A stretch of 6,836 nucleotides of DNA, from IMG/VR virus record IMGVR_UViG_2547132127_000012; one strand, given 5' to 3'. Positions 2,069-6,375 of this stretch are shown piece by piece; the first letter of the stretch is position 1; the number at the start of each line of letters is the position of its first letter. The notes beneath the pieces are model-generated. The model did not search any database. It was not told where the DNA came from and saw only the letters and a list, made by a program, of their open reading frames with translations. The position numbers and the translations under genes were made by a program. Source of the DNA: a virus. Lineage: Duplodnaviria > Heunggongvirae > Uroviricota > Caudoviricetes.

Positions 2069-3166
2069 ATGGCGCTTTTTCAACGAGCAATAAACACACA
2101 GGCCTATCTAAAAGCAGGAATTATGGGGTTTGCTGGCGACGGCAAAACCTACACAGCAAGCGAACTGGCTATTGGTCTGGTAATGCTTATGCGGCAACGG
2201 GGAATTGAAGCTGGTAACCGCCCGGTAATGTTTCTGGACACAGAAACAGGCTCTGACTGGGTTAAACCCCGCTTTGATGCGGAAAATATCGAATTATTTA
2301 CGGCAAAAACCCGCTCGTTTGTTGATCTGCTTGAAGCCATTAATGAAGCGGAAAGCAGCGGTTCCGTAATGATCATCGACTCCATCAGTCACTTCTGGAC
2401 CGGATTATGCGACGAGTATGCCAGACGCCGAAACCGTAAACGAGGACTGGAATTTTCAGGCTGGGCGTGGCTCAAACAGGAGTGGCGACGCTTTACCGAT
2501 CGATTTGTTAACAGTCAGGCGCACATTATTATGTGCGGGCGTGCAGGATATGAGTATGACTTTTTCGAAGGTGATGATGGCAAACGCCAGTTGGCAAAAA
2601 CCGGTATAAAAATGAAAGCAGAAACAGAAACCGGTTATGAACCCTCCATCCTGATCCAGATGGAGAAGCAAATGAACATAGAAACCGGTCAGGTGTGGCG
2701 CACCGCCAGAATACTAAAAGATCGCTCCACCCGTATTGATGGACAGGTATTTTCAAACCCAACATTTAAAAACTTTCTTCCTCATATCGAGTTTCTTAAC
2801 CTGGGAGGTGAACACCCCGGCATCGATACCTCACGGGATAACAGTGAATTATTTGCCAACGACGGTACACCGACATGGCTAAAAGAAAAGCGTGCAAAAG
2901 AAATCGCACTTGATGAAATTATCGAGTTGCTCAACAAGCACCATGGGGGCACCAGTAACGACGCCAAACGCGCAAAAGCTGATTTGCTGGAAAAAACATT
3001 CACCTCCCGCTCATGGGAAAGAATCAAAGGTATGGACTGGCCGACAATCAAAGCTGGTCGTAATGCACTATGGATTGAACTGGAAGGCGTTGAATATGCA
3101 TTCCCGGATCCACAAACACAAAACGAAACGCAACAAGCAGGATACGATGAGAATATTCCGGTGTAA
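2069..3166 (+). CDS. RecA-fold P-loop NTPase (AAA_24/Sak4-like topology) with a ~250-aa C-terminal extension of unknown function
   Basis: GGAGG at 2054-2058, 10 nt before ATG 2069. Walker A GFAGDGKT (aa 20-27), acidic strand motif FLDTETG (aa ~55-61), Walker B VMIIDS (aa ~101-106). This Walker A / D-T-E / hhhhDS order is typical of RecA-like and AAA_24 phage ATPases, not ABC or classical AAA+. Family assignment is from motifs, unverified. Confidence 0.8.
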   Translation: MALFQRAINTQAYLKAGIMGFAGDGKTYTASELAIGLVMLMRQRGIEAGNRPVMFLDTETGSDWVKPRFDAENIELFTAKTRSFVDLLEAINEAESSGSVMIIDSISHFWTGLCDEYARRRNRKRGLEFSGWAWLKQEWRRFTDRFVNSQAHIIMCGRAGYEYDFFEGDDGKRQLAKTGIKMKAETETGYEPSILIQMEKQMNIETGQVWRTARILKDRSTRIDGQVFSNPTFKNFLPHIEFLNLGGEHPGIDTSRDNSELFANDGTPTWLKEKRAKEIALDEIIELLNKHHGGTSNDAKRAKADLLEKTFTSRSWERIKGMDWPTIKAGRNALWIELEGVEYAFPDPQTQNETQQAGYDENIPV

Positions 3167-3216
3167 AACCAAGTGCATTTTGAACACGGTTTTTGAAAAT
3201 ATTAATGGAGGTGTTC

Positions 3217-3405
3217 ATGTATAAAATTACAGCCACTATTGAAAAGGAAGGTGGTTCTCCTACCAGCTGGACAAGATATTCAAAATCTAAACTAACGAAA
3301 TCAGAATGCGAAAAAATGCTCTCAGGGAAAAAAGAAGCAGGCGTTTCCAGAGAGCAGAAAGTAAAACTGATAAATTTTAATTGCGAGAAACTTCTGTCCT
3401 CGTGA
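3217..3405 (+). CDS. Hypothetical 62-aa lysine-rich small protein (MYKITATIEKEGG...)
   Basis: GGAGG at 3207-3211, 5 nt before ATG 3217. Lies 50 nt after the ATPase stop in an AT-rich segment and ends 36 nt before the IS left end. I suspect, but cannot verify, similarity to small Rac-prophage proteins of the ydaC type. Confidence 0.5.
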   Translation: MYKITATIEKEGGSPTSWTRYSKSKLTKSECEKMLSGKKEAGVSREQKVKLINFNCEKLLSS

Positions 3406-3441: not shown

Positions 3442-3470
3442 TGAGATAGCCTGAGTTTAACGGACACTCC
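3442..3470 (+). repeat. IS left terminal inverted repeat (imperfect)
   Basis: Matches the reverse complement of 4677..4705 at the terminal TGAG and the internal CGGACACT block. Confidence 0.5.
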
Positions 3471-3505
3471 TTCCTGAAATAGAATGGCATCAGAAGGAGC
3501 TAATA

Positions 3506-3808
3506 ATGAGCAGAAAAACCCAACGTTACTCTAAAGAGTTCAAAGCCGAAGCTGTCAGAACGGTTCTTGAAAATCAACTTTCGATCAGTGAAGGCGCTTC
3601 CCGATTATCTCTTCCTGAAGGCACTTTAGGACAATGGGTTACCGCCGCCAGAAAAGGGCTCGGTACTCCTGGTTCCCGCACGGTGGCTGAACTGGAATCT
3701 GAAATTCTGCAACTGCGTAAGGCGTTAAATGAAGCTCGCCTTGAGCGCGATATATTAAAAAAAGCAACAGCGTATTTTGCACAGGAGTCGCTGAAAAATA
3801 CGCGTTAA
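3506..3808 (+). CDS. IS3-family transposase OrfA (helix-turn-helix DNA-binding protein with C-terminal leucine-zipper-like region)
   Basis: AGGAG at 3494-3498, 7 nt before ATG 3506. 100-aa protein; the slippery heptamer lies near its 3' end. Confidence 0.9.
   Translation: MSRKTQRYSKEFKAEAVRTVLENQLSISEGASRLSLPEGTLGQWVTAARKGLGTPGSRTVAELESEILQLRKALNEARLERDILKKATAYFAQESLKNTR
3757..3763 (+). other. Programmed -1 ribosomal frameshift slippery heptamer (A AAA AAA) producing the OrfAB fusion transposase
   Basis: AAAAAAA then G at 3757-3764. In the orfA frame it reads ttA AAA AAA Gca. A -1 slip moves codon starts from 2 mod 3 (orfA) to 1 mod 3, the orfB frame (ATG 3844). This is the standard IS3-family arrangement. 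Confidence 0.6.
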
Positions 3809-3843
3809 TCGAACAATGGCGACAACAATTTCCCATTGAAGCG

Positions 3844-4662
3844 ATGTGTCAGGTATTTGGTGTATCCAGGAGCGGTTATTACAACTGGGTACAGCATGAA
3901 CCCTCAGACAGAAAACAAAGTGATGAGCGGCTAAAACTGGAGATTAAGGTGGCACATATCCGCACTCGCGAAACATATGGAACCCGGCGGCTCCAGACGG
4001 AGCTGGCAGAGAATGGCATCATCGTTGGTCGTGACCGACTGGCATGTCTTCGTAAGGAGCTGAGGCTACGCTGTAAGCAGAAACGCAAGTTCAGAGCGAC
4101 TACGAACCCGAACCACAATCTGCCAGTTGCGCCAAATCTGCTGAACCAGACGTTCGCTCCTACAGCACCAAATCAGGTCTGGGTGGCGGACCTGACGTAT
4201 GTTGCCACACAGGAGGGATGGTTGTACCTCGCTGGCATCAAAGATGTTTATACGTGTGAAATTGTCGGCTACGCCATGGGAGAGCGCATGACAAAAGAGC
4301 TGACAGGTAAAGCCCTGTTTATGGCGCTCAGGAGCCAGCGCCCACCTGCCGGGCTAATCCACCACTCTGATCGAGGTTCACAGTACTGCGCATACGATTA
4401 CCGGGTCATACAGGAGCAGTCTGGTCTGAAAACATCAATGTCGCGTAAAGGTAACTGTTACGACAACGCTCCGATGGAAAGCTTCTGGGGAACGCTGAAA
4501 AATGAGAGCCTGAGCCACTATCGTTTTAATAACCGGGATGAAGCCATCTCAGTAATACGGGAATACATTGAGATTTTCTACAATCGTCAGCGTCGTCACT
4601 CTCGTCTGGGGAATATCTCCCCGGCAGCCTTCAGGGAAAAATATCATCAGATGGCTGCTTAA
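3844..4662 (+). CDS. IS3-family transposase OrfB (DDE catalytic domain); in vivo made mainly as OrfAB by -1 frameshift
   Basis: 272-aa ORF identical to 1..819; lies in the -1 frame relative to orfA. Confidence 0.9.
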   Translation: MCQVFGVSRSGYYNWVQHEPSDRKQSDERLKLEIKVAHIRTRETYGTRRLQTELAENGIIVGRDRLACLRKELRLRCKQKRKFRATTNPNHNLPVAPNLLNQTFAPTAPNQVWVADLTYVATQEGWLYLAGIKDVYTCEIVGYAMGERMTKELTGKALFMALRSQRPPAGLIHHSDRGSQYCAYDYRVIQEQSGLKTSMSRKGNCYDNAPMESFWGTLKNESLSHYRFNNRDEAISVIREYIEIFYNRQRRHSRLGNISPAAFREKYHQMAA

Positions 4663-4676
4663 AAAAAGAACAAATG

Positions 4677-4705
4677 GTAGTGTCCGCTATTGCCAGTACA
4701 CCTCA
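4677..4705 (+). repeat. IS right terminal inverted repeat (imperfect)
   Basis: Reverse complement aligns with 3442..3470. The same sequence ends copy 1 at 834..862. Confidence 0.5.
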
Positions 4706-4727
4706 GATTATTAAAAATCAACCACAC

Positions 4728-4756
4728 CCGCCAGTATTCTGTATATTTACTGGCGG
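4728..4756. repeat. 9-bp perfect inverted repeat (ccgccagta N11 tactggcgg) between the IS right end and xis
   Basis: 4728-4736 ccgccagta is the reverse complement of 4748-4756 tactggcgg; the 11-nt spacer is AT-rich. No downstream T-run, so not a canonical intrinsic terminator. Confidence 0.5.
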
Positions 4757-4778
4757 TCATATCGTGAGAGGTATGGCA

Positions 4779-5060
4779 ATGAATCTTGTGACACTCAAAA
4801 CGTGGGGAAAACTCAGATATCCGGATAACCCACCATCAATATCAACGCTGAGACGATGGGCAAGGAATGGAAACATTTATCCTGCACCTGCACTACACGG
4901 GAGGAGTTACAGGGTGGTTCCGGAGGCTTTCTATATCAACCCAAATAAGGTTGATACCGATATAACACACCATCAGCCTAATGGGCGACAAGGGAGAGAC
5001 AGTCCGTTAATGGAGAAGTTAAAACATGCAGCGGAAAAAATACGATCCCAATTTGCCTAG
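4779..5060 (+). CDS. xis: Excisionase (lambda Xis-like, winged-helix recombination directionality factor)
   Basis: GAGAGG at 4765-4770, 8 nt before ATG 4779. Product MNLVTLKTWGKLRYPDNPPSISTLRRWARNGNIYPAPALHGRSYRV... resembles lambda Xis (MYLTLQEWNARQRRPRSLETVRRWVRECRIFPPP...). Overlaps int by 35 nt, as in lambda xis-int. The track's longer ORF start (4674) lies inside the IS and is rejected. Confidence 0.7.
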   Translation: MNLVTLKTWGKLRYPDNPPSISTLRRWARNGNIYPAPALHGRSYRVVPEAFYINPNKVDTDITHHQPNGRQGRDSPLMEKLKHAAEKIRSQFA

Positions 5061-6102
5061 AAACTTAACATATCGAAGGAGAGACAAAGCATATTACTGG
5101 CGCAACCCTCTGACGAAAGAAGAATTTACACTAGGTAAAATTTCAAGAAGAGATGCAGTAGCGCAGGCAATTGAAGCAAATCATTATATATACAAAAACT
5201 ACTCTCCTGCTGCCCTAATTGAAAAGCTTAAAGGGGTCGACTCATTTACTATGGCAGGCTGGATTGAACGTTACAAAACGATTCTTATAAGGAGAAAAGC
5301 GTCCAGAAATACTTATAAAACTCGGGTAAATCAACTGGAGACAATAAAAGAAAAATTAGGAGGGGTTTTACTGACAGAAATAACCACTCGCCATATCGCC
5401 GAGTTTCTTGATTTGTGGATTGAAGGAGGGAAAAACACGATGGCAGGATCAATGCGTTCTGTGTTATCTGATATGTTCCGCGAAGCCATTGTTGAAGGAC
5501 GTATATCTCAAAATCCAGTAACGCCAACAAGAGCACCGAAAATAGTAGTTACAAGAGAACGGCTGAAACTAAAGACATACAACTGCATCAGGGAGGCAGC
5601 AGATCAACTTCCGGCATGGTTCCCATTAGCTATGGACTTAGCCCTTGTAACAGGACAACGTCGCGAAGACATAACGAATATGCGGTTCAGTGATATTTAT
5701 GATGATCGTCTCCACATCAGGCAAATTAAGACAGGAATGATGATTGCTATCCCCCTGTCACTCAGCCTTCCTGTCGCTGGTTTACGACTTGGTGCAGTAG
5801 TTGAACAGTGCCGCATGGTAAGTAGGGGGGATTATCTAATCAGTGCCGGGATTAGAAAAAACAGCCCTGACGGCAGCATTCACCCGGACGGCCTGACAAA
5901 GAAATTTGTCGCAGCCAGAAAATTAACAGGTATCCTGTTCAGTGAAAACCCACCAACTTTTCACGAAATCAGAAGCCTGGCTGGACGATTGTACAAAGAA
6001 ATATGTGGAGAAGAATTTGCTCAGCGTCTACTTGGCCACACATCGGAGAAGACAACAAAAATGTATCTTGATGAGAGAGAAAAAACGTACTTACTGCTCT
6101 GA
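5026..6102 (+). CDS. int: Lambda-family tyrosine integrase (site-specific recombinase)
   Basis: GGAG at 5012-5015, 10 nt before ATG. N-terminal arm-binding region ([30 protein letters not shown]) parallels lambda Int. Catalytic motifs present: [10 protein letters not shown] (Arg), [11 protein letters not shown] (His-x-x-Arg), [13 protein letters not shown] (His...Tyr nucleophile). Confidence 0.9.
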
Positions 6103-6118
6103 TTTTAACGTAAATGGA

Positions 6119-6148
6119 TTGTTAAATGTATTTTGGTTGTGATATAAC
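6119..6148 (+). promoter_or_regulatory. Candidate sigma-70 promoter with extended -10, firing toward the sRNA locus
   Basis: -35 TTGTTA (6119-6124), 18-nt spacer, TGa + TATAAC (6140-6148). Predicted start near 6155-6157. Hexamer prediction only. Confidence 0.3.
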
Positions 6149-6180
6149 CAAAAAAGACCGGAATACAGAAATTCGAGTAA

Positions 6181-6200
6181 ATTTCGGGGAATTTCGGGGA
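6181..6200. repeat. Perfect tandem direct repeat, 2 x 10 bp (atttcgggga atttcgggga), with a degenerate third unit just upstream (6171-6180)
   Basis: Read directly. It sits between the int stop and the sdsR 3' end, where lambda-type P' arm Int-binding sites would be expected. Confidence 0.6.
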
Positions 6201-6233
6201 GACGTTTGCAACTAATTGATTTTAAATACAATT

Positions 6234-6267
6234 AAAAAAAGACCGAATACGATTCCTGTATTCGGTC
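6234..6267 (-). terminator. Intrinsic terminator of SdsR (10-bp perfect stem, 7-nt loop, then U7 on the minus strand)
   Basis: gaccgaatac (6241-6250) pairs with gtattcggtc (6258-6267); loop gattcct. A7 at 6234-6240 on the plus strand is U7 on the minus strand directly after the hairpin. Confidence 0.8.
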
Positions 6268-6336
6268 CAGGGAAATGGCTCTTGGGAGAGAGCCGTGCGC
6301 TAAAAGTTGGCATTAATGCAGGCTTAGTTGCCTTGC
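6235..6336 (-). ncRNA. sdsR: SdsR (RyeB) small regulatory RNA, RpoS-dependent, ~102 nt
   Basis: Minus strand reads GCAAGGCAACTAAGCCTGCATTAATGCCAACTTTTAGCGCACGGCTCTCTCCCAAGAGCCATTTCCCTGGACCGAATACAGGAATCGTATTCGGTC then a T-run, which matches my recollection of enterobacterial SdsR. Internal hairpin ggctct...agagcc, terminal terminator, sigma-S-type -10 just upstream. Confidence 0.8.
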
Positions 6337-6339
6337 CCT

Positions 6340-6375
6340 TTAAGAATAGATGACGACGCCAGGTTTTCCAGTTTG
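6340..6375 (-). promoter_or_regulatory. Sigma-S-type promoter of sdsR
   Basis: On the minus strand, -14 to -4 relative to the proposed start (6336) reads TCTATTCTTAA, close to the sigma-S extended -10 consensus TCTATACTTAA including the -13 C. No clear -35, as is usual for sigma-S promoters. Confidence 0.5.

Follow-up and report, generated by a model that had tools for sequence, protein, structure and literature searches.

Phages enter the 3' ends of tRNA and tmRNA genes and restore those ends as they do so (Williams 2002, as cited in PMC3603311). In Salmonella, the ryeA/ryeB locus is an integration hot spot. According to later summaries (PMC7380047; also PMC3603311) of the work of Balbontin et al. 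2008 (J Bacteriol 190:4075), the attachment site of PhiW104 is the last 23 bp of ryeB, and phage remnants likewise occur at those last 23 bp. A study of genomic islands (PMC10111431) has RyeB in the name of one island, Cfr111.52.RyeB.

The DNA analysed here, referred to as the window, is a stretch of 6,836 nucleotides from a virus of the Caudoviricetes (IMG/VR record IMGVR_UViG_2547132127_000012). By the sequence of its attachment region, the window is a new E. coli/Shigella member of the known ryeB-site class, with what appears to be a textbook lambda-type P' arm. Its target matches the one given in the summaries for PhiW104, the last 23 bp of ryeB, which are the terminator of that gene and lie internal to ryeA; AAGAGACCGAATACGATTCCTGT, the segment common to the Salmonella-type attP (ZC-S1_prp), is exactly 23 bp long. 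With PhiW104, as here, the ryeA promoter is displaced on integration. The two systems differ in host, which is E. coli/Shigella-like here, and in phage lineage. The likeness to integration at tRNA and tmRNA 3' ends is that a small RNA gene has the core in its 3' stem-loop and gets this end back from the phage copy. In the present case, however, the gene entered encodes a regulatory sRNA that has an antisense partner, and sdsR is restored while the promoter of ryeA is displaced.

We read positions 6103-6267 as the int-proximal junction (attL, P'-C'-O-B) of a lambdoid prophage in the intrinsic terminator of sdsR (ryeB), formed through lambda-type site-specific recombination, and put the probability of this reading at roughly 0.85. 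The features of the region, in window coordinates, are the following.

4674-5060, plus strand: xis (excisionase), longest ORF; Pfam PF07825 Exc, E 6e-14.
5026-6102, plus strand: int, lambda-family tyrosine integrase of 358 aa, transcribed toward the att core.
6103-6149, plus strand: Int-distal stretch of the long-class P' arm; contains aaatgtattttggttgtgatataa at 6124-6148.
6150-6167, plus strand: motif copy 1, A6 followed by GACCGGAATAC(A), a direct copy of C'; 85 bp from C' and adjoining the arm repeats distally.
6168-6178, plus strand: P'3-like candidate arm-type unit GAAATTCGAGT, first described as a degenerate third unit; column fixed in the alignment of 24 lineages.
6179-6189, plus strand: P'2-like candidate arm-type unit AAATTTCGGGG, in a perfect tandem pair with the P'1-like unit.
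6190-6200, plus strand: P'1-like candidate arm-type unit AATTTCGGGG(A), second member of the perfect tandem pair; ends 9 nt before the IHF consensus.
6209-6221, minus strand: H'-like candidate IHF site, AATCAATTAGTTG, a sequence match to the consensus WATCAANNNNTTR.
6234-6250, plus strand: motif copy 2, A7 (the SdsR U-run) and candidate core half-site C' GACCGAATAC (C' at 6241-6250); phage-supplied.
6251-6257, no strand: terminator loop GATTCCT, the probable 7-bp overlap (strand-exchange) region.
6258-6267, plus strand: host DNA forming the candidate core half-site B, GTATTCGGTC; opposite in orientation to C' (6241-6250), with which it makes a perfect 10-bp inverted repeat.
6234-6333, minus strand: sdsR (ryeB) sRNA gene; the att core makes up its last ~26 nt; full-length match to Rfam RF00111 with 118 bits.
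6230-6374, plus strand: body of the antisense RNA ryeA (SraC); Rfam RF00101, 179 bits.

Left of about 6233 the window is phage DNA, and right of that point it is host DNA. All 5426 complete E. coli genomes searched have a match to the right-hand part of the window, int is carried by 228 of the 5426, and in each sampled genome without int the match begins at query position 1234, which corresponds to window position 6233. In K-12, which is free of a prophage at this locus, the gene order is pphA - ryeA/sdsR - yebY and the empty site is cagataaaaagaGACCGAACACGATTCCTGTattcggtcc. Empty sites have neither the first copy of the motif nor the tandem repeats. The corresponding gap in NZ_CP065615.1 holds a lambdoid prophage of about 47 kb that is 98% identical to the window from int to yebY. 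Its far junction, next to pphA, reads ...aaaaagaGACCGAACACGATTCCTGTtttcgtcaac, and there the core is the same as in the window, GACCGAAYACGATTCCTGT. A preliminary description, made from the letters of the window, had proposed a lambda-type attL with its core over the 3' end of the host gene, sdsR. That proposal is borne out by host homology that starts at 6233 and by the presence of the core at the far end of this 98%-identical relative as well. The two outcomes that the preliminary description had named as refuting it, a far end with no copy of the motif and empty sites with both copies and the 10-mers, are thus the opposite of what is seen.

Because the far end of the window's own prophage falls beyond the window, the matching attR is observed in close relatives only. 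Ten more viral-contig junctions have a left flank of 100 nt identical to K-12; attR-type junctions make up 9 of the 10 IMG/VR loci in this group with K-12-identical left flanks, all with the C allele at the marker position discussed below. The attP form is represented by PP818812.1 (97% identical), OK490361.1 and OL617042.1, which join the P' arm of the window to the right flank of the far end or its equivalent. OK490361.1 and OL617042.1 are circular records, the phages concerned being the Salmonella phage ZC-S1_prp and a bat-faeces phage (OL617042.1). Excision would re-form attB (...GACCGAAYACGATTCCTGTATTCGG...; ...AAAAAGAGACCGAACACGATTCCTGTATTCGG...) and attP. The window's own prophage is degraded, with IS600 at 3443-4705 and a second IS600 copy at the window start.

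The segment common to attP, attB, attL and attR is GACCGAA(Y)ACGATTCCTGT, with an A-run before it. It is found in the window, at the K-12 empty site, at the far end of the 98%-identical prophage and in the attP of free phage. The core coincides with the terminator hairpin of SdsR, which has 10-bp arms and a 7-nt loop; the core occupies 6241-6259 and the U-run 6234-6240. T at 6248 is the phage allele, found at int-side junctions, while the attB of K-12 and the far-side junctions of E. coli have C. At the position of half-site B, free-phage attP has GTTTTCGTCA instead. Given the C/T marker at 6248 and the divergence of attP from attB from 6260 onward, the crossover must lie within 6249-6259. By analogy with lambda, the 10-bp arms of the terminator would be inverted core-type Int sites, C' contributed by the phage and B by the host. 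The loop GATTCCT would then be the 7-bp overlap for strand exchange, a choice suggested by symmetry and, again, by the arrangement in lambda.

Rfam places SdsR at 6333-6234 and RyeA at 6230-6374, and motif copy 2 therefore comprises the U-run of the SdsR terminator and one of its arms; a terminator prediction also covers motif copy 2. The second copy had been described initially as the U-run and 5' stem arm of this terminator. The assignment to U-run and stem arm stands, but the label 5' holds only when the hairpin is viewed on the plus strand; because SdsR lies on the minus strand, the arm in motif copy 2 is the 3' arm for SdsR itself. The phage copy provides the U-run and the 3' stem arm, and sdsR therefore remains intact. 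With the phage-supplied arm, a U-G pair becomes U-A and the seven U residues are uninterrupted; the predicted stability of the hairpin is the same with phage or host arm, -15.8 kcal/mol for both. In the annotation of K-12, ryeA begins 38 nt upstream of the 3' end of sdsR, where the window has phage DNA instead, and the native promoter of ryeA is on the opposite side of the prophage. A promoter scan returned TTTGCA-16-TACAAT at 6205-6232 alone, a count not above that in shuffled sequence.

The repeats themselves are as first reported, with the duplicated motif, the tandem 10-mers and the third unit having exactly the sequences and coordinates given for them. Motif copy 1 is AAAAAAGACCGGAATACA at 6150-6167 and motif copy 2 is AAAAAAAGACCGAATACG at 6234-6251; the two have the exact 11-mer AAAAAAGACCG in common, followed by a 1-nt indel and then by AATAC. 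Between them, ATTTCGGGGA occurs twice as a perfect tandem at 6181-6200, which Tandem Repeats Finder returns as 6180-6200 with a period of 10 and 100% matches, and a degenerate third unit is found at 6168-6178. We compared the region 6103-6270 with 2000 dinucleotide-preserving shuffles of itself. Exact direct repeats of 11 nt or more turned up in 25 of the 2000 shuffles, and a tandem run of the observed length in 4 of the 2000. Neither AAAAAGACCG nor ATTTCGGGGA has another occurrence in the 6836-base window.

The core was sought in viral contigs as an exact pattern, which gave 120 loci with about 100 distinct left flanks. From these flanks an ungapped alignment anchored on the core was built, with 24 lineages that differ from one another at more than 20 of 100 positions. 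Three tandem units of 10-11 bp occupy the same columns in all 24 lineages (about 25 diverged relatives). Two lineages, L054 and L118, have lost one unit and have two instead of three. The units are homogeneous within a phage and differ between phages: TTCGGAC three times, TTCGAGG three times, TTCGTG three times or TTGGTGG three times. Variable residues in the N-terminal domain of Int go with these unit classes, but loosely. The P'3-like position, degenerate in the window, is a full repeat unit in relatives, as in Salmonella phage ZC-S1_prp, which has GAAATTCGAG / GAAATTTCGAG / GAATTTCGAG. The TTTCG columns of the P'2-like and P'1-like units rank among the most conserved of the P' arm. P arms have two to three similar units in the same orientation at about 115-150 bp from the core; P-arm and P'-arm units of one phage are similar, not identical. 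Some of the P'/P pairs taken from viral contigs may derive from tandem prophages.

The IHF consensus WATCAANNNNTTR has one exact match in the whole window, where 0.42 would be expected by chance. The match sits between the arm units and the core, and its YAAnnnnTTGATW columns are conserved across lineages. Based on the conserved columns, the presence of units in the P arm, and an order, orientation and spacing like those of lambda, the units at 6168-6200 are assigned as candidate arm-type sites P'3 to P'1, probable targets of the N-terminal domain of Int, and 6209-6221 as a candidate IHF site resembling H'. IHF would bend the DNA at 6209-6221 so that arm-bound Int could reach the core. The suggestion that the tandem repeats are arm-type Int sites, made at the outset, thus gains from their fixed position in about 25 relatives, from the repeats of the P arm, from the PF09003 domain of Int and from a P'1-P'3/H' spacing like that of lambda. 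That the 10-mers might instead be a chance array or a slippage microsatellite, with no part in recombination, gains something from the variation in unit number just noted for L054 and L118. We regard it as scarcely credible, in view of the rarity of an equally long tandem run among the shuffles, the placement of the array at one site in 24 diverged lineages with units that co-vary within each phage, the related units in P arms, and the lambda arm-binding domain of Int.

Int is an enzyme of the lambda/HK022 family with an arm-binding N-terminal domain, and a lambda-type Xis is encoded just upstream. Pfam identifies the lambda Arm-DNA-binding domain PF09003 (residues 4-61, 28 bits against a cut-off of 22), together with PF22022 for the central and PF00589 for the catalytic domain. 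By tblastn over 97-98% of its length, the protein shows 41.5% identity with the Int of HK022, 38.6% with that of lambda and 35% with that of phage 21. The window shares with lambda and HK022 this level of full-length identity (38.6-41.5%), the three-domain layout including the arm-binding domain, and an Xis from the same Pfam family. The 3' end of xis overlaps the start of int; relatives annotate a 94-aa version of xis, at about 4779-5060, and in NZ_CP065615.1 it is annotated as excisionase.

The order of elements is also that of lambda: int stop codon, three tandem arm units, IHF site, core, with the IHF consensus in the same orientation. In lambda, P'1 is followed by 8 nt, CAACAAATTGATA, 21 nt and C'; in the window, the last unit is followed by 9 nt, CAACTAATTGATT, 19 nt and C'. 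The arm units read AWTTTCGRG here, as compared with C/AAGTCACTAT in lambda. The systems differ in target, an intergenic site between gal and bio for lambda and an sRNA terminator here, and in the sequence of the core. The P' arm is about 15 bp longer here than in lambda or HK022 and contains a copy of C' at -84/-85, a position whose equivalent in lambda and HK022 lies inside the int coding sequence and has no copy of C'.

The distance from the int stop codon to the core is 138 nt in the window, and two classes of relatives can be told apart by this distance, 134-140 nt in the class of the window and 84-93 nt in a short class. In the short class, int has its stop codon where the window has a TATAA element. 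A repeat of 12 nt of the real int end (6059-6070 compared with 6124-6135) lies within aaatgtattttggttgtgatataa at 6124-6148, which is probably a relic of an older int 3' end.

Motif copy 1 lies inside phage-only DNA, is absent from empty sites, and is present in the attP of PP818812.1, OK490361.1 and OL617042.1. A sequence resembling GACCGAATAC occurs at an offset of -84/-85 from C' in 25 of 26 lineages, where matches to GACCGAATAC average 7.6 of 10, compared with 2.5 elsewhere; the copy in lineage L088 is perfect, 10 of 10. OL617042.1 has the copy too, with an Int about 51% identical and a different core loop. The conserved part of the motif is CCG(G)AATAY, while its first three bases drift (GAC, GGC, TGC, TAC, AAC, CGC). 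Phages of the common E. coli short-arm class have a weaker, degraded version, GACAGGATAT. A second, unrelated Int family that uses the same core, with arm repeats AACAGGA, is without motif copy 1. Variants within the motif occur in the population (L042 and L124). Across 61 junctions of the window's type, a very closely related sample, variants are more numerous in the spacer than in motif copy 1. A look for co-variation of the motif with the host half-site, at seven loci, gave a mixed result in hosts whose half-site B is GTATCCGGTC, with GACCGGATAT in L212 and GACCGAATAT in L032 and L210. In one natural prophage, L065, exactly the 85 bp between the two copies are deleted, and the arm and IHF sites are gone. 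A search of E. coli genomes for such motif-to-core deletions returned full-length scores for normal lysogens also, where two matching pieces are joined. Scans for more distant relatives gave two near-identical loci among genome contigs and, by alignment to viral sequences, mostly relatives 68-99% identical; the comparison therefore covers Ints that use this core or one close to it. In the literature on ryeB-site integration, covered here through summaries of Balbontin et al. 2008, we found no description of a phased copy of C'.

As for what motif copy 1 is, the preliminary description had raised the possibility of a relic core, left in the chromosome here by a previous integration or by a tandem one. 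The copy is indeed close to the left half of the core, with an 11-nt exact match and five more bases; repeated use of the ryeB site is reported (PMC7380047); and the K-12 'empty' site itself seems to retain a relic of an int 3' end. Against this, motif copy 1 is phage DNA and part of the attP of free or circular phage, and so is neither a second junction nor a scar of tandem integration at the locus. Its absence from empty sites, an offset held at -84/-85 in those 25 of 26 lineages despite different arm repeats and int 3' ends, and flanks with no host-like or P-arm-like sequence, unlike a real junction, count against a relic as well. We therefore give up the relic core, which is very improbable. 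Motif copy 1 is rather a built-in part of the P' arm, and could at most go back to a very old duplication within the phage lineage. Such an ancient duplication of the terminator or core in an ancestor of the attP family, functionless and kept by descent or occasional gene conversion, is possible, if somewhat doubtful. It would suit the drift of the first three bases, the degraded form in the commonest E. coli short-class phages, and the variants in L042 and L124; by inspection, copy 1 with the first arm unit also looks like an inverted core that has lost 5 nt (GACCGAATACAGGA[ATCGT]ATTCGG). A sequence without function fits less well with conservation above that of the spacer from arm unit to core and about equal to that of arm unit 1, with an exact phase kept between lineages that share only about 50% identity in Int, and with the perfect copy in L088.

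Our leading guess, of low confidence, is that motif copy 1 serves as an accessory site for Int binding or as an architectural one. More specifically, and this we think unlikely though worth stating, the copy of C' may be a working part of the recombination apparatus that is missing in lambda, either a fifth, accessory core-type Int site or a pseudo-core for the deletion of arm sites. The copy stands eight helical turns out, at the outer edge of the P' arm, and abuts the outermost arm site; as an accessory site, it would help to assemble or regulate the intasome. As a pseudo-core, it would let Int remove the arm sites and so trap the prophage in the chromosome, an outcome that the 85-bp deletion of L065 might illustrate. 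Action at the level of RNA is improbable; motif copy 1 would then be a minus-strand back-up terminator that shields int from read-through from SdsR or the late operon, or the 5' end of a phage-driven RyeA-like transcript. The minus-strand complement with its U6 could base-pair with the SdsR terminator at the 5' arm and the loop, the similarity running into the loop (GAATACAGAAAT compared with ATTCCTGTATTC, 92% complementary). Minus-strand 6130-6275 is predicted to fold with a long-range helix followed by U6, at -32.6 kcal/mol and z = -3.8, with no shuffle as stable, and the motif has a TGnTATAAC element 7 nt upstream of it. The helix is thus predicted, but neither the short class nor OL617042.1 has the U-run that a terminator requires (the A-run of the motif), and we rejected the back-up terminator. 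In other lineages the TATAA element is where int has its stop codon, so that coding explains it; with the promoter scan at the level of shuffles and nothing above chance, TGnTATAAC was also rejected as a replacement promoter for ryeA. The second, unrelated Int family uses the same core with no such copy, which again argues against a role in RNA.

Two other candidates were considered for the motif and set aside. A hairpin of motif copy 1 and arm unit 1 as the int terminator depends on the dyad CCGAAT-N6-ATTCGG, which is limited to units of the TTCGG type; neither the window nor the common E. coli short class has it. The motif as a fourth arm-type unit, direct or inverted, shows no co-variation with the units; in L089 the units are TTGGTGG and the motif is still GACTGAATAT.

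For annotation, the analysis fixes the boundary between phage and host, together with candidate core, arm and IHF sites, for a common E. coli/Shigella prophage family at an sRNA hot spot. The phased C'-like copy poses a small question of att-site architecture. In the lysogen, SdsR has a phage-supplied 3' end and ryeA is severed from its native promoter. A transcript that reads through from sdsR into pphA has been described in K-12 (PMC6610125). The phage-supplied end of SdsR and the loss of the ryeA promoter may matter for SdsR/RyeA regulation and for this K-12 sdsR-pphA read-through.

Two IS600-type copies interrupt the prophage. They are 100% identical over 863 bp, with an orfA that carries an HTH_Tnp_1 domain and an orfB of 272 amino acids. 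Those copies and the other features located in the window are as follows.

1-862: IS600-type copy at the start of the window, cutting the prophage short within its recE region
3443-4705: IS600-type copy, its insertion point some 75 bp ahead of where xis is annotated to begin
3223-3401, minus strand: full-length RalA antitoxin sRNA (Rfam RF02694, 216 bits)
3193-3405, strand opposite RalA: ORF of 70 amino acids overlapping the RalA sRNA
6205-6232, plus strand: promoter-like element TTTGCA-16-TACAAT, overlapping the IHF site and directed into the ryeA body

Because of the two insertions, one of which truncates it, the prophage in the window is a degraded remnant. Its source genome is probably Shigella-like. 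The 70-residue ORF could be the ralR toxin gene; a RalA module is typical of Rac-like prophages. In lysogens, transcription from the promoter-like element could yield a RyeA that is shortened at its 5' end, but a promoter scan found matches of this kind no more often than in shuffled sequence.

Possible traces of older integrase genes are present both in the window and at the K-12 site. Region 6124-6148 of the window, aaatgtattttggttgtgatataa, repeats the 3' end of the real int gene, AAATGTATCTTG at 6059-6070, and the TATAA within it coincides with the int stop codon position of short-arm relatives, in which int ends nearer the core. The region looks like the leftover of an older int gene, since replaced by the present one. 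In K-12 (NC_000913.3; about 2995-3059 of locus L001), upstream of ryeA, 54 nucleotides that include the ryeA -10 element (TGTTATGGT) align at 37 of 54 positions with the last int codons of short-arm phages such as L016. The alignment score of 21, for subsequences chosen by eye, compares with 8.3 +/- 1.6 under the null, and none of 2000 shuffles reached it. The K-12 site, though called "empty", thus seems not to be untouched, and an old int 3' end may be the origin of the native ryeA promoter region.

In one natural prophage of the window's type, IMGVR_UViG_2728369554_000022 (locus L065), a deletion has removed precisely the 85 bp that separate motif copy 1 from the core (junction at about 8500-8580, reading gtgatataaccaaaaaa|GACCGAATACGATTCCTGTattcgg). 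The prophage is left without any arm-type unit and without the IHF site, a loss that should lock it in place. The same SdsR-terminator core also serves a further, unrelated family of integrases, whose N-terminus reads MAIRKLNTGKW... and which occurs at loci L039, L048, L049, L066 and L213-L215. The arm repeats of this family differ: their sequence is AACAGGA, inverted copies lie on the opposite side, and the C' copy is absent from the arm at these loci.

Record PP818812.1, named "Actinobacillus phage vB_Apl-pPE4", matches the window's E. coli/Shigella prophage at 97% identity over int and attP. The target of that attP is the sdsR terminator of enterobacteria, so the stated Actinobacillus host looks doubtful. 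The related, full-length prophage of NZ_CP065615.1 ends, just short of its far att junction, with ipaH3 (24721-26436 of locus L003), which encodes a type III effector; in Shigella-like strains, virulence cargo is therefore carried at the att site in the sdsR terminator.
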